A DNA stretch of 64,000 nucleotides from an uncultured Candidatus Saccharibacteria bacterium (lineage in GTDB: Bacteria > Patescibacteriota > Minisyncoccia > UBA6257 > GWB1-50-10). The notes under the pieces were generated by a model, which had not been told where the DNA came from, did no database searches, and worked only from the letters and a program-made list of their open reading frames with translations. A program made the position numbers and the translations under genes. Every line of letters starts with the position of its first letter. The stretch's first letter is position 1. Shown piece by piece: positions 3,460 to 58,195 of this stretch. Where the stretch lies: NCBI GenBank assembly GCA_964489845.1, contig CAZAZV010000002.1, positions 770 through 64,769 on the forward strand. The letters run 5' to 3'.

Positions 3460-3867
3460 TTATGCAACCGCCCCTCCCGCGTGCTCGATGGCCGCTTTTG
3501 CCTGTTTCGAGACCGGTATGCGCTGCACGGTCAGCTTCTTTCCTATCGGTCCGTTTCCCAAAAGCTTCGGTTGCTCCCCTTTCCTGATTATACCGCGACG
3601 CGCGAGTTCGTCACGCGTCACGACACTCCCCGCCTCGAATGCATCGAGAAGCGAGACGTCCACAGCAACCGGCTTCCGGTTCAAAGGACGGAACGTGACG
3701 CCGCGAAGCTTCGGAAACGTTTTCACGTATTCCTCCTTCGCGTTGTACTTGTGCGTTCCCGCGCGCGCCCGCTGTCCTTTCACGCCACGACCCGAATACG
3801 TCCCGCGCTTCCCGCCTCTCCCGATGCGCTTCCTAGAGCGCCGGGGTATGTTTCTGAGTAATTCCAT
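3460..3867 (-). CDS. rplO: 50S ribosomal protein L15
   Basis: RKRIGRGGKRGTYSGRG motif; directly follows rpsE with no L30 gene between. Confidence 0.9.
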   Translation of the reverse strand: MELLRNIPRRSRKRIGRGGKRGTYSGRGVKGQRARAGTHKYNAKEEYVKTFPKLRGVTFRPLNRKPVAVDVSLLDAFEAGSVVTRDELARRGIIRKGEQPKLLGNGPIGKKLTVQRIPVSKQAKAAIEHAGGAVA

Positions 3868-4339
3868 AGTGTTGCAACGCGCGAACCACCGCGCGCGCGA
3901 TGTTAAGTTTGTTCGACGTCGTACCCAAAAGCTTCGCCGAAACGTCCTTCACGCCGGCGAGTTCCAGAACCGCCCGCGCCGCGCCGCCGGCAACGAGGCC
4001 GTGTCCTTCCCGGCTGGGTTTGATTCTCACCCGCGCCGCGCCGTACTTCATGTCGATATCGTATGGAACCGTCCGGCCGTACTTCGGCTCGAAATGTATC
4101 AACTGTTTCTTCGCCGCCGTCCGCGCCTTGTCGATGGAACCGGCAACGTCCTTGCCGCGCCCGGTGCCGATACCGACCCGGCCCTTGCGGTCGCCGATGA
4201 CGATGCTCGCGCGGAACACGAACCGCTTGCCGCCGGCAACGACGCGCGTCACCCTCCGTATTTCGAGGACTACCTCGTCGAACTCGCGCGGTTCCCGCGG
4301 CGTTCGTTCTCCACGTTGTTCTCTTGGTCTTATCATCAT
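3833..4339 (-). CDS. rpsE: 30S ribosomal protein S5
   Basis: VTRVVAGGKRFVFRASIVIGDRKGRVGIGTGRGKDV. Confidence 0.92.
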   Translation of the reverse strand: MMIRPREQRGERTPREPREFDEVVLEIRRVTRVVAGGKRFVFRASIVIGDRKGRVGIGTGRGKDVAGSIDKARTAAKKQLIHFEPKYGRTVPYDIDMKYGAARVRIKPSREGHGLVAGGAARAVLELAGVKDVSAKLLGTTSNKLNIARAVVRALQHYGITQKHTPAL

Positions 4340-7484: not shown

Positions 7485-7898
7485 TTATTTGCTTGCCACG
7501 ATTTTCGCTTTCACCGGCAGCTTGTGCGCCGCGCGACGCAATGCTTGGCGCGCCAGGGTATCTGCAATGCCGTCGACCTCGAAGAGGATGCGGCCCGGAT
7601 ATACCGGCACGACGTAATGCGAGATGCCGCCCTTGCCTTTTCCCATCTTTACTTCAGCCGGAAACTTTGTGACCGGCTTGTCGGGGAAAATCCGAATCCA
7701 CAGTTTTCCTTCCCGTTTCAAAAAGTGCGTGATCGCGCGACGCGCCGCTTCGATTTGCGCGGCGGTAATCCACGCCTGCGTGAGCGCCTGCAAACCGAAG
7801 CTCCCGAAGTCGACGTTCGTCCCCCGCGTGTCGCGCTTCCGGTTGAGCGAGCGCCCCTTCTGCGTCCTGCGATACTTTTGTTTCTTCGGCTGCAACAT
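7485..7898 (-). CDS. rplP: 50S ribosomal protein L16
   Basis: MLQPKKQKYRRTQKGR...GKGGISHYVVPVYPGRILFEV. Confidence 0.92.
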   Translation of the reverse strand: MLQPKKQKYRRTQKGRSLNRKRDTRGTNVDFGSFGLQALTQAWITAAQIEAARRAITHFLKREGKLWIRIFPDKPVTKFPAEVKMGKGKGGISHYVVPVYPGRILFEVDGIADTLARQALRRAAHKLPVKAKIVASK

Positions 7899-7907
7899 GA
7901 AAATGCG

Positions 7908-8558
7908 TCACACTTTGTACAACCACACGTCGACGCCGATCGTGCCGTAGGTAGTGTAGGCAATGGCCCTCCCGAAGTCAATGTTCGCGCGGAGCGTTTG
8001 GAGCGGCATTTCGCCGAAACTCAACGATTCCGTGCGCGCAATTTCCGAGCCGTTCAATCGCCCCGATACGGTGAACTTCGCGCCCCGCACGGCCTTCACG
8101 ACCTGTACGAATTGCAGGTGCCGCTTCAGCACGGTGCGGAACGGGAGACGCTTCTCGAGGTCCTGGGCAATTTGCGCCGCGACGATATTCGCCGACACGT
8201 CGGTGCGTGGGATTTCCACGACGTCCAGGTGGAGCGAGAAGGTCATCGTGATGTGCCGCTCCTTCCGGAAGGTCTTCAGTTCGCGCACGACGAGTTTGTT
8301 CAAATCGTCGATGCCGCTCCCCCGCCGCCCGATGATAAGACCCGGCTTGTTCGTCTTGATGCTCACCCGGACATCCTCCCGCGTCCGCTCGATCTCAATA
8401 CCGGCGACGCTCGCCTTCGGCAGGTGCTTCATGATGATGCGCCGGAGGAGGCAGTCCTCCTCGAGGAAGAATTTCAATGACTTCTTGAAAAACCACCTGC
8501 TCGGCCAGGGTTGCGTGATGCCCAAACGTAATGATGTCGGTTTGATGCTTCTGCTCAT
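7908..8558 (-). CDS. rpsC: 30S ribosomal protein S3
   Basis: KH domain, RLGITQPWPSRWF, 216 aa. Confidence 0.92.
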   Translation of the reverse strand: MSRSIKPTSLRLGITQPWPSRWFFKKSLKFFLEEDCLLRRIIMKHLPKASVAGIEIERTREDVRVSIKTNKPGLIIGRRGSGIDDLNKLVVRELKTFRKERHITMTFSLHLDVVEIPRTDVSANIVAAQIAQDLEKRLPFRTVLKRHLQFVQVVKAVRGAKFTVSGRLNGSEIARTESLSFGEMPLQTLRANIDFGRAIAYTTYGTIGVDVWLYKV

Positions 8559-27075: not shown

Positions 27076-28250
27076 CAATATCCCTCCAGGTGCTTCACCT
27101 TCCGGTGCTTCCGAATCTGCTCGATCGCCTTCGCCTCGATCTGCCGTATCCGCTCGCGCGTCACGCCGAAGTCCTTGCCGACTTCTTCCAGGGTGTGCGT
27201 GATGTTGTCCTCGAGCCCGAAGCGCATGGAAAGAATTTTCTGTTCCCGCTCGGTGAGGTCGACGAGAATGTCCCTGATTTGCTCCTTCAAAAGGGCGTAG
27301 TTCGCCTGCTCGTCCGGCGGAATGCTCTGCTCGTCGGGCAAGAGGTCCGAGAGCGTGGAGTCCTCCTCGCTGTCGCCGATGGGCATTTCGAGCGACAACA
27401 CTTCCTGCGAAATTTTCTGGATATACCGCACCTTTTCCACCGGCACGCCCATCTCGACGGCGATTTCCTCGGGGAGCGGCTCGCGCCCCAACTCCTGCAT
27501 CAGCTGCCGCCGCTCCTGCGTATACTTTGTAATCGTCTCCACCATGTGCACGGGGATGCGGATCGTGCGCGAGTAGTCGGCCAAAGCGCGCGTCACCGCC
27601 TGGCGTATCCACCACGTCGCATAGGTCGAGAACTTGAATCCTTTGGTGTAGTCGAATTTCTCGACCGCCCGCGTGAGTCCGATGTTCCCTTCCTGGATAA
27701 GGTCGAGGATGCTCATGTACGGGCTCCGGTTCACGTACCGCTTCGCGATGGACACGACGAGACGCAGGTTCGCCTGCACGAGTTTCTTGCGGGCTTCTTC
27801 GTCGCCCTGCTCGATGCGCTTCGCGAGTTCCTTTTCCTCGCGCGACGTGAGGAGCGGCGTTTCCCCGATCTCTTTCAGGTACATCTGCACGACATCCGGC
27901 ATCCCCTCGCTCGCACGGGTCGCGGCTTTCAATTCCTGCTTGCTTACTTCTTCGCTGTCCGCGGTAACCAGCGGCAGCGCCTCGAGCACTTTCACGCCTT
28001 CCGCTTCCAGTTTCTCGTACACGCTCTCGATAAGGGGGATGTTGCGCTCAATGTACGGGAAGTAGCGGAGTATTTCCACGTCCGTCACGAAACCGCGCTG
28101 CTTCCCCCGTGCGACGAGTGTCGCAAGATTCTCGTCGCGGTCTTCCCCTTCCGGAACGGCAATGTGCTGCTGCGTCTCGTGGCGCTTGAGCCCCGATTCG
28201 CTCTGTGCGGAAAATCCGCACACGCTGCAGATAAATGTTTTCTTAGCCAT
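27075..28250 (-). CDS. rpoD: RNA polymerase sigma-70 factor with N-terminal C2H2-like zinc finger
   Basis: Regions 2 and 4 ([42 protein letters not shown]; [23 protein letters not shown]); N-terminus [24 protein letters not shown]. Confidence 0.88.
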
Positions 28251-31098
28251 TGGTGCGCAACGTATCCAGTTCCCCCGAGAGTTCCGAAAATTGCTTCAGC
28301 AGCCGCTCGCGCTCGGCTTCTCCGATGACGGAAGCGATACGCGATTTGATTTCTTTCTGCTTCACTTTGAGCATCTCGATCCGCAGCTGCCGCATAAGTT
28401 CTTTGAGTTCGTCTGCCAGTTCCTCATGCGGAACATTGTTGAACAAATAACTCGCCTCGAGTTCCAGGAGTCCCCCCTCGGCCGTTCTGCGCAGGAGTAT
28501 GTCCTGGTAATGCTCCGGCAAAAGGTCCTGCTCCGATTCCACTTCAGCATAAAACGAGTCATCGGAGAACGCAACGGTGAGGAGCCGCCGCGCGATGCGG
28601 TCTATGCGTTTCACTTCGGCTTCCTGCGGCGTCTCCGCTTCGACCGGCGCCGGTCCGCCGGCTTTTACGGTCGCGAACGCCTCGCGGAGCATCTGCTCCG
28701 AAATGCCCGCTGCGCGGGAGAGTTCCTTGAGCCACATATCCTGCTCCACGGCGCTCTCAAGGCGCGAGATGAGCCGCAGCATCGTCCCCACCATCCGCTT
28801 CCGCGCCGCGGGGTCGAGCGTGCCGCCGAAACGGACGGCGAAGAGCCGCTTGAACGCGGGTTCGGCTTGCGCGACACGTTTTGCGAACCCCTCCGCGTCT
28901 CTTTCCACAAACTCCGCCGGGTCTTTAAAGGTGCCGAGATCAACCGCCTTGACATAAAAATCGAACGTCCCGAGGAGCTCGAGGGAACGCTCGAGCGCCT
29001 CGATGCCCGCCTCGTCGCTGTCGAAACTCACGACCGCCGTGTCGGTGAGCCGCCGCAACGCGGTGAGATGCGCCGGCGTCAAACTCGTCCCGCACACCGC
29101 GACGGCATTCGTCACGCCCGCCTGGTGCGCCATGAGGGCATCCATATATCCCTCCATGACGAAAACGCTTTTCTGCTGCGCGATGTCCCGCTTCGCCTGC
29201 GAGAACCCGTAGAGGAGTTTCGATTTTTGGAAAATCGGCGTCTCGGGAGAATTCACGTACTTGGGGTTATTGTCGTCGTCCGCGAGCACGCGCCCCGCGA
29301 AACCGACGACCCTGCCGATATTGTTCCAGAGCGGGAACATCACGCGGTTCGCGAAAAAATCTTTGTAGAGTCCTCCTCGCTTCACGGCAAAGCCCGCTTG
29401 GACGAGTGTCTCGATGGAATGTCCTTTGTGGAGGAGGTACACGGTGAGCGCGTCACCACCGGGCGCATAGCCGAGCTCAAAGCGTTTCGCTGTCTCGCCG
29501 GTGAGGCCGCGTCCCTTCAGGTACGCGATCGTTTCCGCGTTCTCTTTTAGCTTGCTCCTGAAGAAGTCCCGCGCGAGCTCGTTCACTTCGTACAATTCGG
29601 CGAAGCGGTGCTCCATGCCGCCCCGGCCGCGCGAAAGTTCGATACCCGCCCGCTCGGCGAGAAGCTGGAGCGCCTCGGGAAACTCAATGCCCTCGTAGAG
29701 CATCACGAACTTGATGACGTCTCCCCCCTGTCCGCAATTCGCCACCGCAAAATGATTTGCTACGTATGAATGGTCTTCGTCGACAGTTAAGTTATAGACA
29801 GGACCGGTATACGGTTCTTTCCACACTTCCTTTACGGGAAGGAGCCAATAACGCCTTCCTTCGACCTCCTCGTATATGAAGCTATGCTGGGACTTCGCCT
29901 CCTCCGACCAGAGGATTCTGTAGACCTCGCGATGATTCACGCCTCGCGCATCGTGCCTTGTCCCCCGAACTCCGAAAGAAGGAAAGAGGTTGTTTCTTAA
30001 GAGTATGTCAATAACCTGCTCAGCAAGAATTCTCGAAATACTCGTGATGCTTTTATGCGTTTTTGTGGAACGACTGAATATACCGGTATGCCCATCGCCT
30101 CTGAAAATGGCATCGACCAGCACCTTCTGCTTTTCTGGAGGTAAAACTTGGAACACAAAGGGTATGTGTTTATACTCTGCTCCCTTGCCGCAAAGATTCT
30201 CAAAAATATTGGCGAGCTGTGCATGGCACGCGGTAATTTCGAGACCTGTTTTCTTTGTCTTGTTCGGATTTCTTTCATAAATCTTCGCTTCAAGTCCGAA
30301 AACGTTTTTCACGAGACGGACGATATCGTCGGCAAATTCCCGCTCATGATTCCCCAAACTGAATCGGATATACGCCCGATGACTGCTTCCCTCAGCTATC
30401 CAATAACCGAGAAGTCTCAGAAAGTCGTCATCAAGGGCAATGTTGAGTGAAATATCCCGCGAATGAGGACCAAACGTATATCCCTTGGTCAAATAGTCAT
30501 TGAGGTCGATGCGGGTCAGTTCGGCAACCGAGTTCTCAATCGGATAAAACACAAAATCGGCCGGTGCAATGCTGCCCGCATTGATTTCGATGATACTTCC
30601 GTGTTGCCGCGCCGCCTCGGAGAGCGTACGGGCCGTGCCCCGCGATACCGCATCGCGGCACAGACGATAAAACTGTTTGGTTTTCTTGCGGTAAGAAGTT
30701 GCGGGTCGCAGAACCTTCAGCTTATGGTCAGCGGTCATGGATACTGTCTCATTAAGTTTTCTCGTTCTCACATGAACTAAATCGCCCACATAATTTCTCA
30801 CATGAGTCGCGAGTACTCTCCGAACCTTCCCCGAACCGGAGTAGACGTAATGATTCTCGTCAATGTCTTCTATGTTATGGAGACCAAAGGGAGTTTTTAC
30901 CTTCTGACCCGGCGGGAAACACCCGAAGCAGTGCCACATCCGTCGCTCGGGAGACACCATGAAGGACGGAGTTTTCTCCTGATGGAAGGGGCAGAGCGCT
31001 TTGTAGTTCTTGCCCGCCGGCCTCAGGTCGATGTATCCCTTTAACACATCGAGAATGTCGGTGCGCTCTTTCACGCGCTCCACGTCAGTTGTTGCCAT
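28243..31098 (-). CDS. dnaG: DNA primase DnaG interrupted by a 395-aa LAGLIDADG intein in the zinc-binding domain
   Basis: Exteins: [24 protein letters not shown] | [12 protein letters not shown], then TOPRIM ([17 protein letters not shown]...SFDSDEAG). Confidence 0.85.
29737..30921 (-). mobile_element. Intein (Cys1 ... Asn395, with a Cys at the following extein position) with a LAGLIDADG homing-endonuclease domain, inserted in the DnaG zinc ribbon
   Basis: Starts CFPPGQKV (block A), TADH (block B), [11 protein letters not shown] and [12 protein letters not shown] (LAGLIDADG blocks), ends ...HFAVAN followed by an extein Cys. Removal restores the HCFGCGQGGD primase consensus. Confidence 0.75.
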
Positions 31099-32426: not shown

Positions 32427-32657
32427 TTATAATGTCTCCAAAATTTCCAAATACTGCTCGCGGGTTATATTCAGGATACGGAGATTGTTGCGGATAACAA
32501 AAACCGGCAGCGTACTATCTTGCGGAACCACTACCGGTCTCTTAACGTCTTCACGGCGATAGATGCGATGGTCTCCCTTCTCACGAACAAACACGCAACC
32601 GACCCGGAGTAAAAATTTCTCGAACGTTTTCCAATCGACAGGACGAATCCTTGGCAT
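32427..32657 (-). CDS. hicA: HicA-family (YcfA-like) toxin
   Basis: 76 aa; FEKFLLRVGCVFVREKGDHRIYRR...PVVVPQ matches the HicA pattern; directly downstream of a HicB-like gene. Confidence 0.6.
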   Translation of the reverse strand: MPRIRPVDWKTFEKFLLRVGCVFVREKGDHRIYRREDVKRPVVVPQDSTLPVFVIRNNLRILNITREQYLEILETL

Positions 32658-32663
32658 CCTACA

Positions 32664-32945
32664 CTATGCGCAAACCGCAACCGAGACGGGTTCAGAACCC
32701 TGTGAGACAATTTCCGGCGGCTGCCAATTTCGCTCCAGCTTCTTCCAACCAAGCTCCGAGAGCACTTCATCAAGCGTTCCCATCTTGACCAATTCTTCAA
32801 AGAAAAGGCGGACCGCTTCGCCAAATCGTTGCTTCACCTGCATCTCACTCTCTCCCGACGTAGACAAATCCAAAGCGGGTGTATATGCCACATATCGCCC
32901 CTCTTCTTTTAAAACCGAAACCGGCAAAACGCAACGCATTTCCAT
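32664..32945 (-). CDS. hicB: HicB-family antitoxin (UPF0150 N-terminal domain)
   Basis: LKEEGRYVAYTPALDLSTSGESEMQVKQRFGEAVRLFFEEL. Confidence 0.6.
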   Translation of the reverse strand: MEMRCVLPVSVLKEEGRYVAYTPALDLSTSGESEMQVKQRFGEAVRLFFEELVKMGTLDEVLSELGWKKLERNWQPPEIVSQGSEPVSVAVCA

Positions 32946-33000
32946 AAGCTTAACTATATCATAAAAGTCTTAATTTTCAACGTACCCTTCATAAGTCAAA

Positions 33001-33027
33001 AAACCGCCGGTCTCTCGGCGGTTTTCA
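33001..33027 (-). terminator. Terminator of the rpsL-rpsG-fusA operon
   Basis: aaaaccgccgg-tctct-cggcggtttt, T/A-rich on both sides. Confidence 0.6.
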
Positions 33028-33049: not shown

Positions 33050-33125
33050 CTACTGTCCGACAATACTCTCGGCAATGTTTCTTGGCACAATGCCGTAGTG
33101 CGAGAATTCCATATTGAACGTCGTC
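33050..33125 (-). pseudogene. Diverged remnant of a fusA 3' end (last about 25 codons: ...[24 protein letters not shown])
   Basis: 42 nt identical to the true fusA 3' end, then about 75% identity to the stop codon. Confidence 0.7.
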
Positions 33126-33261
33126 GTCCCGCCAGGGCGGGACTCCTCCCCATAGGGCTTCAGCCCTCTGGTGTCACTCGCTTCGCTCGTTCCAGTCACC
33201 CCAAGCGGGGAAACTACAGTTTCCCCGACCCCCTTCGCACGTTCAATACGGTAAGTCCCTG
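33126..33261 (-). repeat. Family-1 structured miniature element, copy R, immediately downstream of the fusA stop
   Basis: About 135 nt with hairpins (gtcccgccctggcgggac; ggggaaactacagtttcccc) and a T-loop-like end cgttcaatacgg; about 70% identical to copies at 35392-35544 (inverted) and 45866-46035. Confidence 0.65.
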
Positions 33262-35391
33262 CTATTTCCCGACTATCTCTTCGGCGAGGTTTCTTGGCAC
33301 AATGCCGTAGTGCGAGAATTCCATATTGAACGTGCCTCTCCCCTGCGTCATCGAACGCAACGTCGTCGAGTAGCCGAAAAGTTCGGCGAGTGGTATCTCC
33401 GATTCGATGACGCGGACTTTCTCCCGCTCTTCCATCGCGGTAATCGAGCCGCGCTTCGCGTTGATGTCGCCCGTCGCGTCTCCCAAGAATTCGTTCGGCA
33501 CGATGACCTGCACTTTCATAACCGGCTCGAGGAGCTGCAAGCCCGCTTTGCGCGCCGCCGATTGGAATGCCATCGAGCCGGCGATTTGGAATGCCATATC
33601 CGAAGAGTCCACTTCGTGGAACGAGCCGTCGTAGAGGGTCACCTTCGCGTCGATGAGCGGGTAGCCGGCAAGCACGCCTCTCGCGGCGGCTTCCTTCACC
33701 CCCTTCCCCACCGACGGAATGAATTCCTGCGGGATGGCGCCGCCCTTAATCGCGTTCACAAATTCGAATCCTTCCCCGCGCGGCAACGCCTCGAGTTTCA
33801 AAAATACGTGCCCATACTGACCGCGCCCGCCCGACTGGCGGATGTACTTTCCTTCCGCCTCGGCGCTCCCCATAACTGTTTCCTTATATGCGACTTGCGG
33901 GCGTCCCTGCGTCGCCTCGACGCCGAATTCCCGCTTCATGCGGTCGATGACGATCTCAAGGTGCAGTTCTCCCATGCCGGAGATAATCGTCTCGCCGGTA
34001 TCGGGGTCGCCCGACACGCGGAACGTCGGATCTTCTTCACCAAGCTTGTGGAGCGCCACGCCCATTTTCTCCTGGTCCACTTTGCTCTTCGGCTCGACGC
34101 GGACGGAAATGACCGGCTCGGGAAAGACAATCGATTCCAGACGTATCGGATGCGACGGGTCGCAGAGCGTGTCGCCGGTTGTCGTGTTCTTCAGGCCGAC
34201 CAGAGCGCCGATGTCGCCGGCATACACTTCCGGAACTTCCTCGCGGTGATTCGCATGCATCCTGAGAATCCGCCCGATACGCTCCTTCTCGCCGTTCGAC
34301 GAATTCAGGACGTAGCTTCCGCTCTGCAGCGTTCCCGAGTAGAGGCGGAAGAACGCGAGCTTCCCCACGTAAGGGTCGGAGGCGATTTTGAACGCGAGGG
34401 CCGCAACCGGTTCGTCGTCCTTCGGGTGGCGCTCGAATTCCTCGTGCGTCTTCGGGTCGAATCCCTTCACGGGCGGCAAATCGGCGGGACTCGGGAGATA
34501 GTCGACGACGGCATCGAGCAAAAGTTGCACGCCTTTGTTTTTCAGCGCGCTGCCGCAGAAGACCGGCACCACCATTCCTTGCAACACTGCCTTCCGGAGC
34601 GCGTGCCGTATCTCGTCCACCCCAATCGGTTCTTCTTCCAGATACTTGTGGAGCAAGGCATCATCCGCTTCCGCCGCCTTTTCGAGCACTTCGTGACGGC
34701 GCGTTTCCGCTTCCTGTTTCAAGTGTTCCGGTATGTCTATCTCGCGTATTTTTTCCCCGTGTTCGCCCTCGAAGGTGTACGCCTTCAGAGCGACGAGGTC
34801 GATAACGCCGGAGAAGTCGGACTCGAGACCGATGGGTAGCTGGACAGCGACCGCATTCGGCGTCAGCCGCTCGCGGATAGAGCGCAATCCTTTTTCAAAA
34901 TCGGCGCCGGTCCGGTCAAGCTTGTTCACAAAGCAGATACGCGGCACGTGATACTCGTCGGCGTAGTGCCAGTTCGTCTCCGACTGCGGCTCGACGCCTG
35001 CGACGCCGTCAAACACGACGACGGCACCGTCGAGCACCCGAAGCGAGCGCTTCACCTCGACGGTGAAATCGATGTGCCCGGGGGTGTCGATGAGATTGAT
35101 GCGGTGCTCGTGCTCTTTCCGCAACTCCTTCAAGCGCTCTGCGTCTTCGACACCTCCCCGCACGTACGTGGGCGTCCAAAAACATGTCGTCGCGGCGGAT
35201 GTAATCGTGATGCCACGCTCGCGCTCCTGTTCCATCCAGTCCATAATCGCCTGCCCCTCGTGGACTTCTCCGATCTTGTGGGAAATGCCGGTATAAAAAA
35301 GGATGCGTTCGGAAACCGTCGTTTTCCCGGCATCAATGTGAGCGATGATACCGATATCTCTAACTTTCTCTATGGGGTATTTTCTGGGCAT
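33262..35391 (-). CDS. fusA: Elongation factor G
   Basis: 709 aa; [22 protein letters not shown]; domains II-V. Confidence 0.97.
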
Positions 35392-35544
35392 GATTGATTA
35401 CGAAATTATCAGGAAAGCGAACATTGATGCGCGAGAGGGGTCGGGGGAACTGTAGGTCCCCCGTGGAGGAAAGCACCGAGGAGTGAAACGACGAGGGCCG
35501 GAAACTGTGGGTTTCTGGGGAGCCCCGCCAAGGGGCGACGCGAA
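35392..35544 (+). repeat. Family-1 structured miniature element, copy L, immediately upstream of the fusA start codon
   Basis: Plus-strand sequence cattgatgcgcgagaggggtcgggggaactgtaggtcccccg... is homologous to the reverse complement of copy R, so fusA is flanked by inverted repeats. Confidence 0.65.
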
Positions 35545-35600
35545 ATCTGGGCAATAATACCGATATCCCGTACTTTCTCTATGGGGTAAAGTCGAGCCAT
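35545..35600 (-). pseudogene. Diverged remnant of a fusA 5' end ([19 protein letters not shown]...) 12 nt after the rpsG stop. The ORF runs on through element L for 63 codons.
   Basis: About 80% nucleotide identity to the first 19 codons of the intact fusA ([19 protein letters not shown]); native rpsG-fusA spacing retained. Confidence 0.7.
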
Positions 35601-35611
35601 ATCTTCAGAAG

Positions 35612-36082
35612 CTACCGCAGGAAACTCGCGAACGCGCGGTTCGCTTCCGCCATCTTGTGCATTGTCTGCTTGCGCTTGATCGCGTTCCCTTCTCCCTCCG
35701 CCGCCGTAATCAATTCCTGCGCCAGGCGCTTCGCCATCGGCGCACCCTTTGCCGCCTGCGCCGCTTCGATGATCCAGTTCGCCGCAAGGAAAAACTTCCG
35801 CCCGGGACGGACTTCGCGCGGTATCTGATAGTTCGCACCGCCGACCCGCCGCGACACAATCTCGAGACGCGGCGACGCATTCTCGATTGCCTGCTCGAAG
35901 ACTTTCAGGGGGTCGGTCTTCTTCTCCTTCTCGATTGCGTCGAACGCGTCATACATAACCTGCTCGGCAACGGACTTCTTGCCGTCCTTCATGAGGTAAT
36001 TGATGAACAGACCGACGTCAACGCGGTCATATCGCAGGTCCGGTTTCCGGTCCCGCTTCTTATAATACGTGCTCTTACGCAT
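35612..36082 (-). CDS. rpsG: 30S ribosomal protein S7
   Basis: [21 protein letters not shown]...[15 protein letters not shown]; start trimmed to MRKSTYY. Confidence 0.9.
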
Positions 36083-52621: not shown

Positions 52622-53197
52622 ATGGGGAACATGCTTGAATACAACGAATTGAGGCCGGGCAAAACTTTCATATTGGACGGCGAACCGTATGTCGTACTCG
52701 ATTACAACTTCGTCAAGAAGCAGCAACGGCGGCCGACCGCCCAACTGACGTTAAAAAATCTTTTGAGCGGCAAAGTGCGGGAGTACGGCGCGCACCAGGG
52801 AAGCACATTCGAAGAAGCGGACATTGTGGGGAAAAACTCCCGCTTCATCTATTACAAGGAAAAGACCGGCGAATACTGGTTTTGCAGCGCGGACAACCCG
52901 AGCGACCGCTTTGCGTTGAAAGCGGAGGTTGTTGGCGACGCCCGGAACTATCTCAAGGAAAATCTGGAAGTGACTATCCTGTCCTTCAACGACCTGCCGA
53001 TATCGCTCCGCCTGCCGGCGAAAGTTGACCTCAAGGTGACCGATGCGCCGCCGAGCGTCAAAGGAGGTACGGTAAGCGGCGGCACGAAATCCGTCACAAC
53101 GGAAACGGGCTTGAAAGTGACGACACCGCTTTTCGTCAATGCGGGAGACGTCATTCGCGTGAACACCGCGAACAGTGAGTACACCGAGCGCGTTTAA
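52622..53197 (+). CDS. efp: Elongation factor P
   Basis: RPGKTFILDGEPYVVLDYNFVKKQQRRPTAQLTLKNLLSGK; 3 OB-like domains. Confidence 0.9.
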   Translation: MGNMLEYNELRPGKTFILDGEPYVVLDYNFVKKQQRRPTAQLTLKNLLSGKVREYGAHQGSTFEEADIVGKNSRFIYYKEKTGEYWFCSADNPSDRFALKAEVVGDARNYLKENLEVTILSFNDLPISLRLPAKVDLKVTDAPPSVKGGTVSGGTKSVTTETGLKVTTPLFVNAGDVIRVNTANSEYTERV

Positions 53198-54696
53198 TCT
53201 TTCTTCGCTTCTCCGTTTCCTCCAAGCGCCCGTTCGAGGATATCTTTCAATTCCTCAACATTAACGTCTCCGCGCGGCGGCTTCTCTCCGGCATGCGGAT
53301 GCAATGGCGCGGGACGCCCTTCGTCTTCCCGGTGAAGGACGGTTTTAAGTCGTTGCTCTCCCCGCTCGCTCACCCGCTCCACTGCCAGCCGCTCGTCCTG
53401 CCACTCCGCGCGCAATTTTTCTTCGACGTAACTCCGCGGCGAGCCGTAGCGCCGCTGCGAGTACTCGACGATGGTTTCCTTCTGCGAGTGTTCGGGAGGC
53501 GTGGGGGGCGGGAACGTCCGCGCCGAGAAGGGCTGCGAGGTGATGCCGTCTATCATCATCTTGATGATGACGTGGTGCTTCGCGAGATTCACGAGGTCCT
53601 GCGCGGTGTACTGCGGCCCGAATTCGGGCTCGAGAAATTCGGCATCCGCCGCGCCGATGCGGAAACAAACGAGTGTGCCGACGTTCCCAAAAATCGCGTC
53701 GCGCACGCGCGTGTTGCCGTTGTCATGCACAAGCTGGTTGATGTACTGGTGCGCCAAAACGAGATTCAGGCGGTACTTCCGCGCCTCGGAGAGGATGTTC
53801 GCGAACGAATCGGTCGCGAAGTTTTGGAACTCGTCGACGTAGAGCACGAAGTCCCGCAGTTCATGGAGCGGCATATCGCCGCGCGACATCGCCGCAAGTT
53901 GCAGTTTGGTAACAATGAGGGAACCAAGGAGCGCTGTGTTGTCCTCCCCAACCTGTCCCTTCGACAGATTGACGATAAGAATTTTCCCGCTGTCCATCAC
54001 CTCGCGCATGTCGATGGCAGAGCGGGGTTGTCCCAAAATATTCCGGAGCAACGGGTTCGTCACGAATTGCCCGACTTTGTTCTGTATCGCGGCAACCGCC
54101 TCAATCTGCAACCGCTGCGTGTATTGGGCGAATTCCTCTTTCCAGAAGTGCTTCACAACCGGGTCTTCGATGTGATTCACGATTTCGTCGCGGTACCGCC
54201 TATCGGAAAACATCCGCAGAATGCCGAGCACGGTCGACGATGGATTCTCGAGGAGCGCGAGGACAGTATTGCTCAAAATATATTCCATACGCGCGCTCCA
54301 CACGTCAGGCCAAATTTTCTTGAACACTCCCATCATACCCGATGCCAAGAGGTGCCGCCGCTCCACCGAAACCTCTTCGAAGGGGTTAAAGCCGATGGGG
54401 TGCTCGAGGTCGCCCGCGTCGAAATAGATAACGTCTTCCACCCGCTCCTCCGGCACGTAGTGCAAGATGTGCTCCGCGAGCTCCCCATGCGGGTCGACGA
54501 CGCCGATGCCCTTACCGCTCTGGATGTCGGACACGATCATATTCTCGAGGAGCGTCGATTTCCCCACGCCTGTTTTCCCGATGACGTAAACGTGCCGCCG
54601 CCGGTCGTCCGCCTTGATACCGAAGCGCCGTTCTTCTCCGCGATAGTCCGTAATGCCGATAGGGGTGATGAGAGGGGTAACGTTCGAGTAATCCAT
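53194..54696 (-). CDS. P-loop ATPase of the TraG/TraD/VirD4 (type IV secretion coupling protein-like, AAA_10) family
   Basis: Walker A VIGKTGVGKST; Walker B VLYVDEFQNF; about 500 aa soluble ATPase. Confidence 0.55.
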   Translation of the reverse strand: MDYSNVTPLITPIGITDYRGEERRFGIKADDRRRHVYVIGKTGVGKSTLLENMIVSDIQSGKGIGVVDPHGELAEHILHYVPEERVEDVIYFDAGDLEHPIGFNPFEEVSVERRHLLASGMMGVFKKIWPDVWSARMEYILSNTVLALLENPSSTVLGILRMFSDRRYRDEIVNHIEDPVVKHFWKEEFAQYTQRLQIEAVAAIQNKVGQFVTNPLLRNILGQPRSAIDMREVMDSGKILIVNLSKGQVGEDNTALLGSLIVTKLQLAAMSRGDMPLHELRDFVLYVDEFQNFATDSFANILSEARKYRLNLVLAHQYINQLVHDNGNTRVRDAIFGNVGTLVCFRIGAADAEFLEPEFGPQYTAQDLVNLAKHHVIIKMMIDGITSQPFSARTFPPPTPPEHSQKETIVEYSQRRYGSPRSYVEEKLRAEWQDERLAVERVSERGEQRLKTVLHREDEGRPAPLHPHAGEKPPRGDVNVEELKDILERALGGNGEAKKD

Positions 54697-54697
54697 G

Positions 54698-55999
54698 TTA
54701 GAAAGAGGGTAAATCGGCCGGCGGGCTGCTCTTGCGCGCCTCGATGCGCTGCAGCATCGGCGACTTGACGCCGGTAATCGGGAAGTGGAAGAGCGTCGCG
54801 AGTTCCTCCGCGTTGTAGATGTTGAATTTCCGCACGAAATCGCGGGCGCGGTAATGCGCGTAGAGTTTCCGCCGCTTCCGGTCCGTTTTGAGGTTCTTGA
54901 ATGGCTGCTTTGCGGTCGTCATGGTTTCCTTGTTCACGCCGAGCGCGTTGAGGTTCAAGGTACTGAACTGCCTGAACACACCCATGAGCGCGGTACTGTT
55001 CGAACCGGTAAACGCATCCTTCCGGTCAATATAGACGAAGCGGATGCCTCCTTCAAATCCTATCTTCGACATCTTGTGTTCCACCGCCTCGATGATGCGC
55101 TTGTTTCCCTCAGTGAGTCCTCCTTTTTCTTCTTTTTTCTCCTCTTTGCCTCCTCCCCATTCGGGCACCACGAACGGCGCCTTGAGAAGATTCTGGCCGA
55201 ACTCGCCGACGTTTTGCCCCTGTTTCCCCGCCCACTCGGAGAACTTCATTTTCTTCTCCGGTTTTTTCTTGCCGAGCACGATATCGATGACTTCCTGCGC
55301 TTTCTTCGTCCATTCGGTCCCCGTCGGCCGTATGAGAATTTGAATCCACGCGGCTTCCGAACGCTCGAGGCGGGACATAACCTCGGTAATGGCGCCGATG
55401 GGGTCGACGCGGCGCTCTTCCTCGCGCTCCTCGAACTCCGGGTATGTCCGCAGGGGGTATCCGTCCTCGCGCACGAGCGCAAGCTCGCTCCCGAAAAGTG
55501 TATATTCCTCGTTCGGCAAGTCAGCCGGGAATGAGCGGACATAGTCGTCCTCGTCCGGGACGAGCGATATTTCCACGTCGGGATAGTGCGCGTACACGAC
55601 CGATTCAATCATGTCGCGGTATCCTTCCGGTATCCGTATGTAAAAATGCACCGCGCCAGCGCGCCCCGCGACCTCGAAGCTCGCCCACTGTTCCACGACT
55701 CCCTTGAACCACTTCTTGTAAAATGAGACGCCGAACGAATACATCCCGTGCACCGTGGCGAAAACTTGCTCCATCGCCTTCGCGGTCTGGGGAACCTCGC
55801 GCGGCGCTGTGAGCTCCAAGAGCACCCATTTGATATCGTTCTTGAACCGCTCTTCTTTATAAAACAACCATGCTCTCGAGAACGCGAAAAAGAGAGCGAG
55901 AGGGATGACCACCCACCATATCAAAACAAAAACGCCCCAAAACGCATGGAAGCCAACCGTTAAGGCATCACGAACTGCTGTAAGAGCGGTCAATAACAT
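54698..55999 (-). CDS. Hypothetical membrane protein (N-terminal 2 TM plus large soluble domain) co-transcribed with the ATPase
   Basis: 1-nt intergenic gap before the ATPase gene; TM helices in the first 50 aa. Confidence 0.45.
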   Translation of the reverse strand: MLLTALTAVRDALTVGFHAFWGVFVLIWWVVIPLALFFAFSRAWLFYKEERFKNDIKWVLLELTAPREVPQTAKAMEQVFATVHGMYSFGVSFYKKWFKGVVEQWASFEVAGRAGAVHFYIRIPEGYRDMIESVVYAHYPDVEISLVPDEDDYVRSFPADLPNEEYTLFGSELALVREDGYPLRTYPEFEEREEERRVDPIGAITEVMSRLERSEAAWIQILIRPTGTEWTKKAQEVIDIVLGKKKPEKKMKFSEWAGKQGQNVGEFGQNLLKAPFVVPEWGGGKEEKKEEKGGLTEGNKRIIEAVEHKMSKIGFEGGIRFVYIDRKDAFTGSNSTALMGVFRQFSTLNLNALGVNKETMTTAKQPFKNLKTDRKRRKLYAHYRARDFVRKFNIYNAEELATLFHFPITGVKSPMLQRIEARKSSPPADLPSF

Positions 56000-56025: not shown

Positions 56026-56240
56026 CCGCTATCCCCTGAAAAAGGACCCGCGCAGGGCGAGCTGGCAGAACTTGCCCGAACGAAGTGAGGTTACAAGTTC
56101 GCCATCCCGAGGAGCTCTGCCAGCAGGCGGAGCGAGGAGGGGCTACCTTCAGCGAGAGAGCGAGCCCGAGCGTGAACGCGTCCCGCTCGCGGGGCGGGAC
56201 GACGTGTTTCGCTTCAGGGGCGTAGCGGTCGGAGTAGGTC
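56026..56240. repeat. Family-2 structured repeat / candidate ncRNA (copy 2, about 215 nt)
   Basis: ccgctatcccctgaaaaaggacccgcg...gagcccgagcgtgaacgcgtcccgctcgcggggcgggacgacgtgtttcgcttcaggggcgtagcgg; homologous to 39541-39715 with a 40-nt insertion. Confidence 0.5.
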
Positions 56241-57286
56241 TACTTCAGCCGATATGCTCCCCCCGGCAGTCGCTCGAAATACTGCCGGTTCTGGAGGTTG
56301 AGCACGATGGTATTCTCCTTCGAAAACTTGCGCTTCTGAACGGCGTTTATCAGTTCCCGGGCGCTCATCGGCCCGTTTTCTCCCAAAATCCTCGCGATCA
56401 CTTCCCGTACCGTTCCTCCTTCGTACCCGTCTTCCTTCAACCCGTACGTTCCCCGGCCCACGAGCACGAACCGCTCGTCTTTGATGAGTTCGTTATGAAT
56501 GGTCTGAGGATGCACGCGCCGTTCGGCAAGTCCGACTTCCTGGATCATTTTCGCAATGTCTCTGAAGTGCAACGGCTTCCCGTGCTTCTTCAGTATCAGG
56601 TACGCGCGGTCGCGCGAGAATCGCGGCGTGATCTCGGGCCACTCCGCAAGTCCCACGTCTCCGAACACGTTCACGGTGACGCGGCGGGCGAGCGGCAGGA
56701 GCCGCCCCAGTTCCATGGCGTCGAACCACTCGAGATGCTTACGCTTCACAAGAATTCCTTCCGGTCCCGCTTGCTCGAATCTCTTGATGAGCTGCTTCAC
56801 GTCCCGCAGCACCCCGCTCTTCTGCCGCTCGTCGAGGTACCAAAACGCTTCCACGTCCCGATCGCCGGGAAAATAAAACGGCGCGCCGTTCGAAACTTCG
56901 AGGACGAAGTGCAGTTTGTTCGCGCACTGCTGCACCGAGTCGACAAGTCCTTTGCGCTCGAGGTCGGCGAGAAATTGCTCGCCGTGCGCGTAGCCGCCGC
57001 GTTCCTTCAGAATCACGTACGCGTCAGCGAGAAAATCCTGCAAAAGTCCCGCGAGAACATCTGCGAGCGCTTCCCGCGTTTTTTTCTCTATTTGCCGCAC
57101 CCGCTCGCGCGTCAGTTCAAGGTCGTCTCCGATTTCCTGGAGCGTCCGCCGCGTACCGCTTCGGTCGAGACCGAATCGTCCTCGTATGACTTCGCGCTGC
57201 TTCGGGGAAAAATCCGCAAGCGCGTCCCGCAATATGCCATCCAAATACGTCATAGGAAATCTAACAATAACACACAAGTTATCCAC
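56240..57286 (-). CDS. Sigma-70 region-4 HTH domain protein with large unknown C-terminal domain
   Basis: FSPKQREVIRGRFGL...TLQEIGDDLELTRERVRQIEKKTREAL. Confidence 0.5.
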   Translation of the reverse strand: MDNLCVIVRFPMTYLDGILRDALADFSPKQREVIRGRFGLDRSGTRRTLQEIGDDLELTRERVRQIEKKTREALADVLAGLLQDFLADAYVILKERGGYAHGEQFLADLERKGLVDSVQQCANKLHFVLEVSNGAPFYFPGDRDVEAFWYLDERQKSGVLRDVKQLIKRFEQAGPEGILVKRKHLEWFDAMELGRLLPLARRVTVNVFGDVGLAEWPEITPRFSRDRAYLILKKHGKPLHFRDIAKMIQEVGLAERRVHPQTIHNELIKDERFVLVGRGTYGLKEDGYEGGTVREVIARILGENGPMSARELINAVQKRKFSKENTIVLNLQNRQYFERLPGGAYRLK

Positions 57287-57289
57287 ACG

Positions 57290-58195
57290 TCAATCCCCCT
57301 TGTTTCTGCCCTGCCACAGGTACAGGAGCGGGCTCGCCACGAAGATGGATGAATACGTTCCCGCGACGGTCCCGATGAGTACGGTAAGGAGGAACCCCAT
57401 GAGTGACGAGGGGCCGAAAAGGAGGAGCGCAATGAGCACGACGATGAGCGTGCCGGATGTATTCATGGACCGCATGAGGGTCTGATTCACGCTGTCGTTC
57501 ACAATGTCTCCGAGCGGGATCCGTTCGTTCTTCCGCTCGAGGAGGTGTTCGCGGATGCGGTCGAAGACCACAATCGTGTCGTGCACCGAGAAACCAACCG
57601 TCATCAGCAAGCCGACAAGTATCGTCGTGTCCACGTCGAAGAGACCGAAATGTCCGAAGAGTGCCACCGCGCCAAGCGGGATGCTCACGTCGTGAAACAG
57701 CGCGATGAGCGTCGAGAAGCCGTACTTCCACGAGGAAACCCTCGCCGCCGCCTTGCGGAACGCCCACCCGACAAAGAAGGTAATCGCCGCAATCGCGCCG
57801 ATGAGCGCCCAGAGCGACTGGCGCCACAATGCTTTGCTCACCGTCGGCCCGATACTCGAGAATCCGAGCGTCTGGAACGTTCCAAACGCCTTCGTGAGCG
57901 CCTGCTCGTACGCCGTCTTATCCGACGGCATCATCTGTTTCACCCGTATGACGATGCCCTCCCCCACCCGCTCGGTCGCCACATCGGCATGAAACGTTTT
58001 TTCGACGAACGCCCTCACCTGCTCCGGAGAAACGGTTGTCGAGGAAGCAAACTGCACGCTCCACGACGTGCCACCGGACAAATCCGCACCCGGCTGCAAA
58101 CCGAACACGAACACGCACACCCACGCCGCGAAAACGAGCGCGAGCGCGACACCCAGGAAAACGTTTCTGTGTTTTATGACGTCAAGCTTATGCAT
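57290..58195 (-). CDS. secF: Protein-export membrane protein SecF
   Basis: 301 aa, 6 TM, follows secD. Confidence 0.85.
   Translation of the reverse strand: MHKLDVIKHRNVFLGVALALVFAAWVCVFVFGLQPGADLSGGTSWSVQFASSTTVSPEQVRAFVEKTFHADVATERVGEGIVIRVKQMMPSDKTAYEQALTKAFGTFQTLGFSSIGPTVSKALWRQSLWALIGAIAAITFFVGWAFRKAAARVSSWKYGFSTLIALFHDVSIPLGAVALFGHFGLFDVDTTILVGLLMTVGFSVHDTIVVFDRIREHLLERKNERIPLGDIVNDSVNQTLMRSMNTSGTLIVVLIALLLFGPSSLMGFLLTVLIGTVAGTYSSIFVASPLLYLWQGRNKGD

Follow-up and report, generated by a model that had tools for sequence, protein, structure and literature searches.

In the genome of an uncultured Candidatus Saccharibacteria bacterium, the essential translation factor gene fusA lies between two structured elements of ~110 nt in inverted orientation, here termed L (at its start) and R (at its end), and beyond each element a diverged second copy of one end of the gene is found. 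The locus was analysed within a stretch of 64,000 nt (assembly GCA_964489845.1, contig CAZAZV010000002.1, positions 770 to 64,769 of the forward strand), referred to as the window, and raises the question whether fusA is a foreign gene whose arrival left these traces, as a sequence-only reading of the locus had suggested, or a resident gene at whose ends the elements were inserted. Our analysis speaks for the resident gene: L and R are probably independent insertions of a mobile element family, accompanied by target duplication, and not the ends of a cassette.

On the minus strand, the sequence and the list of open reading frames (ORFs) revealed the order rpsL, rpsG, an 11-nt spacer, a fusA-like start, a structured segment (L), a 29-nt spacer and intact fusA, followed by a 10-nt spacer, a second structured segment (R), a repeat of the final 72 nt of fusA and a terminator at ~33025-32998. 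The distance from the rpsG stop to the ATG of the remnant, previously given as 12 nt, was corrected to the 11 nt stated here. A repeat finder located the 3′ duplicate at 33050-33121 versus 33262-33333 with 86% identity over 72 nt, its mismatches being unevenly spread, with 0/45 differences in the first 45 nt and 10/27 in the last 27 nt (17/27 match). The 5′ duplicate was located at 35544-35600 versus 35335-35391, where 44/57 positions agree (84% over a 45-nt core). The repeat spacings of 209 and 212 nt correspond to two extra blocks of ~210 nt, each composed of an element and a duplicated target. That fusA is flanked by inverted structured elements and by diverged copies of its own ends, as previously described, was borne out by the sequence, the repeat finder and a pattern search.

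The 5′ duplication is real and extends further than was initially seen. The 29-nt spacer before the real fusA ATG opens with a decayed rpsG 3′ end (GTTCGC---TTTCCTG versus GTTCGCGAGTTTCCTG), which is collinear with the functional rpsG end (31 versus 33 nt from the ATG), and the score of this extension into rpsG was reached by 22/2000 shuffles. With the decayed rpsG end in the spacer, the 5′ repeat therefore measures ~90 nt.

The two elements share a core of 33 nt, the arms of which (33206-33238 and 35431-35463) are inverted and 85% complementary; a 27-nt core pattern was found at two sites only in 64 kb, with 0 expected by chance. The description of L and R as reverse complements of each other holds for this core and not for the elements as a whole, for which overall identity was ~55% over ~113 aligned columns. 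L and R are diverged members of one family, not twin copies. The gene-facing end of each is complementary to the adjoining gene: 33237-33251 of R pairs with fusA 33321-33335 (14/15) at the boundary of the 3′ duplication, and 35421-35430 of L pairs with fusA 35330-35339 (10/10) at the boundary of the 5′ duplication. These inverted micro-copies of the target are designated E below.

Comparison with four relatives (L001, L004, L006 and L008) revealed amino acid identities of 86, 80, 76 and 75% for fusA, 87, 82, 81 and 75% for rpsL, and 85, 72, 67 and 60% for rpsG, respectively. The relatives rank in the same order for all three genes, with no excess divergence of fusA, and the nucleotide identity to L001 along fusA revealed no foreign or mosaic block. 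L001 is collinear with the window, its alignment running unbroken through rpsG into the 5′ remnant, and only the first 57 and the last 72 nt of fusA align twice; a terminator follows fusA at a similar distance in L001. The window itself is a core region of a Patescibacteria genome, containing ribosomal protein operons, EF-Tu, RpoA, RpoD, DnaG and aminoacyl-tRNA synthetases, and a protein identical to the fusA product of the window (P0001) is recorded on one contig. Judged from these comparisons, fusA is native.

Empty sites, in which rpsG, 13-14 nt and fusA directly follow each other, were found in L001, L007, L008 and L009, the element being present in none of the four. The alignment of intact fusA and the remnants to relatives, which should have told a foreign gene from a resident one, gave no sign of a foreign gene. 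Remnants and intact ends were about equally distant from L001 (47, 48 and 44 of 57 at the 5′ end; 18, 18 and 17 of 27 at the 3′ end); therefore, the insertions are considered old. In L006, the fusA of which is 76% identical, the spacer between rpsG and fusA is 230 nt long (3771-4000) and holds a relic of an L-type insertion. Its E-proximal 25 nt match in 21/25 positions, a score reached by 1/3000 shuffles; the relic further comprises a decayed body and a weak remnant of the fusA 5′ end. The E of L006 follows the His codon of L006 itself, which is CAT rather than CAC. The relic reflects either an ancient insertion that was lost elsewhere by recombination between the repeats or a site that was hit twice.

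The element family and its junctions

A search for further copies by covariance model, profile and patterns was rewarded with a third copy in the window and others in independent assemblies. The third copy, at ~45.9 kb, was found by BLAST of L against the window (88% over 58 nt). Covariance-model scores were 101.5 bits for L (E 2.4e-25), which was also matched by nhmmer, and 65.1 bits for R (E 1.5e-15), both of these copies having been in the seed. By profile and covariance model, the window holds exactly three copies, the next best match having E = 0.05. Outside the window, conserved patterns were run once against species-representative genomes and once against metagenomes; 14/21 metagenome pattern matches were chance occurrences in coding sequence, as were L010 and L012 of the genome scan. 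Copy numbers amounted to 3 in the 64-kb window and at least 3 in 8 kb of locus L011, with others in 8 or more contigs. Copies of L011 follow tRNA-Ser(GCT) and tRNA-Ser(TGA), and a copy in L014 follows rplK in the same assembly as L001 with its empty fusA sites. A second subfamily comprises L013 (identical to L021 and L031), L017, L018, L030 and L034, which lie just upstream of different genes, in sense orientation and directly before the start codons.

Read in the orientation in which E comes first, the body consists of GGGGGTC overlapping hairpin 1, (TGTA)GGAAAGCA, a variable hairpin, GCCGGAAACCGTGGGTTTCTGG forming hairpin 2, and GGAG; its 3′ part contains a hairpin or a GCGAAGC-type motif and ends in CGAC. 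Conserved motifs include GGAAAGCA and CCGGAAACCGTGGGTTTCTGG. Hairpin 1 shows compensatory changes at 7/9 pairs. Hairpin 2 hardly varies, 11/12 copies having a G.U pair, and covaries in R; because the G.U pair is possible on one strand only, the E-first strand is taken to be the folding strand. Paired cells amounted to 95%, compared with 87% in shuffles and at most 72% with slid partners. Hairpins 1 and 2 are alike (GGAAAC...GTTTCC). The motif GCGAAGC, GCGGAGC or GTGAAAC recurs in bodies, namely at 33160-33175 of the window and in L013, L014, L017 and L034. Its sequence is that of a very stable DNA mini-hairpin of single-stranded phage origins and is possibly a sign of a stage as single-stranded DNA.

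E repeats 10-20 nt of the target in inverted orientation, and a purine-rich linker of 3-8 nt separates its end from GGGGGTC. In 10/11 copies, the inverted match was exact over 10 nt or more, which was reached in 0/400 shuffles. The E-complement lies 59-91 nt upstream in the gene-end copies and 20-28 nt upstream in L014 and subfamily 2. E includes target-specific bases, namely GCGAGAA at tRNA-Gly, CAGGAC at tRNA-Gln and bases of both flanks of the fusA site, and is therefore not just the complement of the universal T-loop. The inverted repeat, made of E and the adjacent target, is different at every locus, while GTCG/CGAC is all that the two ends of the body have in common. T(C/T)GAAC directly precedes the linker of six copies (R, copy 3, L011a, L011b, L011c and L022); L has TTGATG in its place and L014 is without such a motif.

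Direct repeats were present at every subfamily-1 copy for which flanks were available; in subfamily 2, repeats were weak at best. In all copies for which the repeats were traced (R, L, L011a, L011b, L022 and L014), the left repeat copy starts at the start of the E-complement and the right one 0-4 nt after the body. The detectable repeat length was 9 nt in L014, 15-27 nt in the tRNA copies, at least 72 nt in R and ~90 nt in L.

The tRNA T-loop is the usual target of the family. An insertion point in the T-loop, a direct repeat reaching to the tRNA 3′ end and an intact tRNA were observed at tRNA-Gly in the window, twice at tRNA-Ser in L011 and at tRNA-Gln in L022. With tRNA T-loops as the usual target, the ends at fusA had aptly been called T-loop-like; the corresponding fusA targets are GTTCAATATGG near the 3′ end and CATCAATGT in antisense at codons 18-21.

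Two loci reveal departures from the standard copy. At 7880-7975 (minus strand) of L011, a shorter variant without hairpin 2 retains E, linker, hairpin 1 and GGAGGAAA; its end is GTGAC, after which comes the T-loop-to-CCA remnant of a third tRNA. This variant shows which parts of the body are dispensable. At 708-1028 of L022, tandem units follow tRNA-Gln, each unit consisting of tRNA 3′ part, terminator, E and body. The second unit begins before the contig end; in the internal remnant, the changes in the T-loop number 4 over the first 12 nt and 0 over the next 11.

Rfam 15 yielded no family match at gathering score for the elements in the whole window, and R at E<=10 and four other copies at E<=5 returned only tRNAs or noise. 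ARAGORN found no tRNA or tmRNA within the elements at any of the relevant loci. In IMG/VR, two patterns gave 0 and then 34 chance matches, none of which was confirmed by nhmmer, and BLAST of the body against plasmids and phages gave no match. By-eye resemblances to HDV-like, hammerhead, SRP-like and RNase-P-like RNAs (GAGGAAAG, GGAAAGCAGC) had no model support and were discarded. No description of the element family was found in the searchable literature, and the family, which belongs to Patescibacteria, is apparently undescribed. As read from the sequences, it is small (body ~95-140 nt), non-coding, structured and multi-copy, and occurs in Patescibacteria-like genomes.

Insertion and its rival explanations

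If L and R are independent insertions, the target stretch duplicated in each event would run from p1, the site that was hit, to a second point, p2, 20-90 nt downstream. The order on the element strand would then be upstream flank, target copy 1, E, a purine-rich linker of 3-8 nt, body to CGAC, target copy 2 and downstream flank. The duplicated stretch would span a gene boundary, each gene keeping a contiguous copy while the other copy decays. Because each neighbouring gene keeps one intact repeat copy, remnants would be left and insertions would survive only at gene ends; likewise, an essential gene would tolerate two insertions because the intact copy is kept and the other decays.

Several observations bear on the origin of the gene-end copies. 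Two of the L011 bodies share 93% identity, but the tRNA 3′ end beside each is that of its own tRNA, and the start of the gene downstream of the remnant can be aligned with the spacer of L011a at an unchanged offset. Repeat lengths of ~90 nt in L and 72 nt in R (plus a weak extension to TATTGAA) compare with distances from E-complement to E of 91 and 84 nt. Extension of the repeat beyond the gene ends was significant for L (22/2000), marginal for R (74/2000) and not significant for copy 3, L011a and L011b. Microhomology at p2 in the native copy was seen as TATTGAA in R and GATT in L011a. The evidence favours duplicated resident target rather than imported ends as the source of the gene-end copies, and full-length duplication is demonstrated for L only, largely for R and weakly for L011a. 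An alternative raised in the sequence-only reading, two att-type integrations that each carried a gene end, was essentially right about two separate integrations, given that the same element occurs singly elsewhere, and probably wrong about the imported ends, since each repeat matches its own target.

A number of points weigh against insertion with target duplication. Past the tRNA part, no statistically supported alignment of the repeats was obtained for L011b and copy 3, and L014 keeps 9 nt only. Perfect terminator hairpins in the first repeat copy of copy 3 and L022 could hardly have come from the second copy by drift. The split of 0/45 versus 10/27 differences in the 3′ repeat requires an extra event; for the identical 45-nt block, the best explanation is that one repeat was later converted by the other. 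Different loci of subfamily 2 have a conserved upstream hairpin in common, which there is part of the element and does not derive from the target. Distant genomes share a strongly conserved body, which could reflect host function rather than recent mobility. Among ~50 window ORFs scanned against Pfam, no reverse transcriptase, transposase or integrase was found; these ORFs had no Pfam hit or were of housekeeping type (ribosomal proteins, EF-Tu, SecY, RpoA, RpoD, DnaG with intein, aminoacyl-tRNA synthetases, UvrC, SecDF, a VirD4-like ATPase and HicA). Likewise, neither the window ORFs nor the fetched loci yielded a parental insertion sequence that has these ends and encodes a transposase. Finally, group II introns are reported absent from Patescibacteria (PMC13011429); the group I introns at tRNA position 35/36 treated in the same paper are unrelated to the element.

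Family membership, the architecture of the copies, the native state of fusA and the presence or absence of the element among relatives having been established, the insertion mechanism can be inferred from them. As a tentative proposal, which may well prove wrong, insertion is a copy-choice (template-switch) event. A strand synthesised across the target would leave it at p1, helped by homology of the T-loop to a T-loop remnant on the 3′ end of the donor, i.e. a transcript or single strand carrying such a remnant. It would then copy the element to its 5′ end, snap back over 10-20 nt to write E, re-anneal by microhomology up to ~90 nt away and re-copy the target, leaving the long repeat. The preference for tRNA genes and the two T-loop-like sites in fusA would be due to the proposed T-loop homology to the remnant that follows the donor copy. 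Variable duplication, junction microhomology and short linkers are present, read from old, decayed insertions. The insertion signature does fit a template-switching strand, and fits no known DDE, serine, tyrosine or Y1-HUH chemistry.

Taken further, and by now speculative, the family would represent a new class of bacterial mobile element, in which a gene-less structured RNA or single strand of ~110 nt is template-switched into sites homologous to the T-loop, writing E and re-copying up to ~90 nt. In a variant of this idea, E would be a guide fused directly to the scaffold, re-homing the element to the same site. If true, this would be a bacterial SINE-like or copy-choice retroelement able to sit harmlessly at the ends of essential genes.

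Among the rival explanations, the best surviving one, although unlikely, is site-specific integration mobilised in trans. Here, the whole 180-230-nt block of gene end, spacer, E and body would be mobile and carry an att site homologous to the stretch from T-loop to 3′ end; a tyrosine recombinase or HUH enzyme encoded elsewhere would act as for tRNA-targeting genomic islands, and the displaced native end would become the remnant. T-loop targets with a repeat to the tRNA 3′ end are its classical signature, the tandem units of L022 include trailer and terminator, copy 3 and L022 bring their own perfect terminators in the first repeat copy, and the 10/27 versus 0/45 differences at the fusA 3′ ends look as expected of a crossover beside an imported end. 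However, a ready-made, locus-specific gene end would be needed for every target, including an antisense fusA plus rpsG end, and the two different tRNA-Ser genes with 93% identical bodies would each need their own. E is left unexplained, no integrase was seen among the scanned window ORFs, and a DNA circle of ~200 bp is a poor recombination substrate.

It is improbable that a single-strand element (HUH, IS200/IS605-type palindrome-associated or REP-like) inserted beside hairpins or TYGAAC, with repeat and E arising from repair. The hairpins are strand-specific and hairpins 1 and 2 are alike, a hairpin always lies directly upstream of the body, T(C/T)GAAC precedes the linker in the six copies named above, and the GCGAAGC-type mini-hairpin motifs of many copies are typical of single-stranded DNA. 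Against this stand the TTGATG of L and the lack of the motif in L014, the insertion of the IS200/IS605 family without target duplication, and the result that no TnpA, RAYT or TnpB was found among the scanned window ORFs.

An equally low probability is assigned to a non-mobile host RNA or DNA module (a 3′ or 5′ untranslated-region stabiliser, terminator or regulator) that was locally duplicated and selected. A host function would suit the finding that hairpin 2 and the single-stranded motifs are strongly conserved in genomes of low as well as high GC, the sense orientation of subfamily 2 directly upstream of start codons, and the E stem kept at fusA in L006 despite a decayed body. Presence and absence, however, differ between close relatives, target repeats flank each copy, L is antisense to its operon and tandem copies exist. 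Exaptation of single copies is compatible with insertion of a mobile element.

Xenologous replacement of the interior of a resident fusA by an incoming cassette of inverted repeat, fusA and inverted repeat, as the sequence-only reading had preferred, is very improbable: the elements are inverted and bracket the gene, with remnants of both ends outside, but the fusA interior is as near to the closest relative as rpsL and rpsG are and ranks the relatives in the same order, L001 is collinear, the elements are only 55% identical and thus not a matching pair of ends from one cassette that moved recently, the element also occurs singly and one-sided at tRNA-Gly and at tRNA and rplK genes elsewhere, and the 5′ repeat includes rpsG sequence, which is not expected in a fusA cassette. 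That strain-variant reads were collapsed or concatenated at the fusA ends is scarcely credible, for although the contig is metagenome-assembled and the duplicated ends are diverged like strain variants, the identical architecture with a conserved body between repeats occurs in independent assemblies and projects, and mis-assembly does not yield a structured 110-nt element common to genomes. A template repeat/variable repeat (TR/VR) pair of a diversity-generating retroelement was also considered and rejected, as all four bases are affected by the 10 differences in the last 27 nt, without adenine specificity, and no reverse transcriptase was found in the scanned ORFs.

Transcript features, neighbouring genes and coordinates

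The insertions at fusA create new leader and trailer structures. In the minimum-free-energy fold, a predicted stem between the E-complement and codons 18-21 encloses the ribosome-binding region and start codon of fusA, and a predicted 15-bp stem at the 3′ end encloses the last 23 fusA codons. A chimeric ORF of 63 codons bridges rpsG and fusA (Table 1) and, as suggested by its position, may couple fusA translation to that of rpsG; both the start-codon stem and the bridging ORF may be exapted. A long-range mRNA stem of L with R across the ORF (33 nt, 85%), as had been envisaged for the two arms, is possible on sequence grounds and would be a by-product of two opposed insertions. A promoter scan gave no convincing promoter for an element transcript.

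A protein-coding element was considered and rejected: L and copy 3 give similar 63-aa ORFs and R does not, and the likeness follows from nucleotide identity. Comparison of the chimeric ORF with the equivalent frame of R revealed no protein conservation.

The sequence GTCCCGCCTTGGCGGGAC at 39595-39612 is nearly identical to the 3′ hairpin of R (33126-33143), giving two copies in the window versus 0.03 expected, and is followed by a second GC hairpin, ATCCCGCCGGCCGGGGCGGGAT, at 39637-39658; no element body is present there. Between metG and tRNA-Gly (46161-46276), a 60-nt tandem duplication (1.9 copies, 94% identical) was seen, which may represent a duplicated terminator/promoter module; each unit comprises a GTCCCGC...CGGGAC hairpin together with the sequence lying directly upstream of the tRNA.

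Downstream of fusA, at 32427-32945, a HicA toxin gene (76 aa) with a HicB-like ORF upstream (no Pfam hit) was found; this pair is followed by NUDIX and DUF5701-like genes, all between fusA and dnaG. As L007-L009 have dnaG directly after fusA, the fusA-dnaG interval is variable. The dnaG gene (28243-31098, 951 aa) contains an intein with a LAGLIDADG homing-endonuclease domain in the zinc-ribbon region, the DnaG proteins of the relatives measuring 564-577 aa. A VirD4/TrwB-like type IV coupling-protein ATPase is encoded at 53194-54696, and two ORFs of ~430 aa without Pfam hit follow it (54698-55999 and 56072-57352).

Table 1. Features of the fusA and tRNA-Gly loci, with positions in the window.
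Feature	Position	Strand	Remarks
Native intrinsic fusA terminator (AAAACCGCCGAGAGACCGGCGGTTTTTT)	32998-33025	-	read by eye; not listed by a simple scan
Distal copy of 3′ duplication (remnant, ...NIAESIVGQ*)	33050-33121	-	contiguous with native terminator
Element R body	33122-33236	-	fusA sense; hairpin 2 covaries (CCAGAGGGC/GCCCTATGG); 3′ hairpin GTCCCGCCCTGGCGGGAC
E of element R (CCGTATTGAACGTGC)	33237-33251	-	14/15 complementary to fusA 33335-33321
Gene-side copy of 3′ target duplication	33262-33333	-	last 23 codons and stop; start overlaps IRa 33321-33335 (GCACGTTCAATATGG)
fusA, intact, native, 709 aa	33262-35391	-	from ORF and comparison with relatives
fusA-side repeat copy of element L	35335-35422	-	decayed rpsG end (GTTCGC-TTTCCTGA), decayed spacer, functional fusA codons 1-19
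Chimeric 63-codon ORF	35409-35600	-	from native fusA start position through antisense of element L and E stem to stop 17 nt before real ATG
E of element L (ACATTGATGCGC)	35421-35432	+	first 10 nt are exact reverse complement of fusA codons 18-21 (35330-35339)
Element L body	35433-35543	+	antisense to fusA; hairpin 1 at 35437-35463, GGAAAGCA, hairpin 2 CCGGAAACTGTGGGTTTCTGG, 3′ hairpin, end GCGACGCGA
rpsG-side repeat copy of element L	35544-35633	-	functional rpsG end 35633-35612, 11-nt spacer, 57-nt fusA 5′ remnant 35600-35544
rpsG	35612-36082	-	156 codons; last ~22 nt are one end of 5′ target duplication; from ORF and sequence
Third copy	45852-46153	-	architecture as R; covariance model 89 bits
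Intact tRNA-Gly(CCC)	46153-46082	-	third-copy locus
18-bp terminator	46081-46043	-	third-copy locus; second terminator at 45792-45769
E of third copy (GCGAGAATCGAAC)	46029-46017	-	13/13 complementary to T-loop and T-stem of tRNA-Gly
Third-copy body	46014-45897	-	
15-nt remnant of tRNA-Gly 3′ end	45866-45852	-	follows extra ~35 nt after body

Comparison with known systems

Repeats resembling MITEs (miniature inverted-repeat transposable elements), such as Correia/NEMIS, ERIC, RUP, BOX and the Rickettsia palindromic elements, are similarly non-coding, multi-copy, hairpin-rich and enzyme-less, measure 100-170 nt, lie at gene ends or inside genes and likely alter transcript structure. MITEs, however, possess their own terminal inverted repeats, whereas the inverted repeat of the present element consists of the target-derived E and the target; their target repeat has a fixed length of 2-10 bp, whereas that of the element varies from 9 to ~90 nt. 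Unlike MITEs, the element prefers the T-loop, and we know of no related full-length insertion sequence.

With tRNA-targeting integrative elements, i.e. tyrosine-recombinase islands, P4-like phages and tycheposons, the family shares insertion in the T-loop, a partial tRNA 3′ end as direct repeat, an intact tRNA and tandem arrays. In contrast to these, it is ~100 times smaller and without cargo or integrase (a 180-230-nt block with no conserved ORF), and it also occurs at protein-coding ends on either strand, with the inverted micro-copy E.

Palindrome-associated transposable elements (PATEs) derived from IS200/IS605, and REP/RAYT systems, are alike in their strand-specific subterminal hairpins, insertion beside hairpins and miniature size; they differ in the absence of a target duplication and in their dependence on a Y1 HUH transposase, none of which was seen in the scanned window ORFs. 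The TR/VR arrangement of diversity-generating retroelements, which are common in Patescibacteria, likewise shows a direct repeat of a gene 3′ end including the stop and a short spacer, but the body of the element is unrelated, the gene 5′ end is repeated too and no reverse transcriptase or Avd is located nearby.

Irrespective of the mechanism, the false lead of a foreign copy replacing an essential translation factor is removed, no sign of such an event having been found. As the family shows, either end of an essential gene, as well as the interior of tRNA genes, can accommodate insertions. The family also poses an annotation hazard, yielding pseudo-starts, pseudo-ends and partial tRNA genes.

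The remaining likeness is to target-primed or template-switch insertions of non-LTR (long terminal repeat) retroelements and SINEs (short interspersed nuclear elements). To our knowledge, there is no bacterial SINE-like element. Common to both are variable target duplications, junction microhomology, short linkers that are untemplated or rich in purines, inverted copies made by snap-back, and structured RNA templates that are non-autonomous; the difference lies in the reverse transcriptase, none being linked to the present element. In one preprint, snap-back and microhomology activities are described for group II-intron-like reverse transcriptases (bioRxiv 10.1101/2022.03.14.484287). The insertion signature of the element, a long variable target duplication together with a target-derived inverted micro-copy at a fixed distance from a conserved structured body, matches no standard bacterial transposition chemistry and points to a template-switching or otherwise unusual mechanism.

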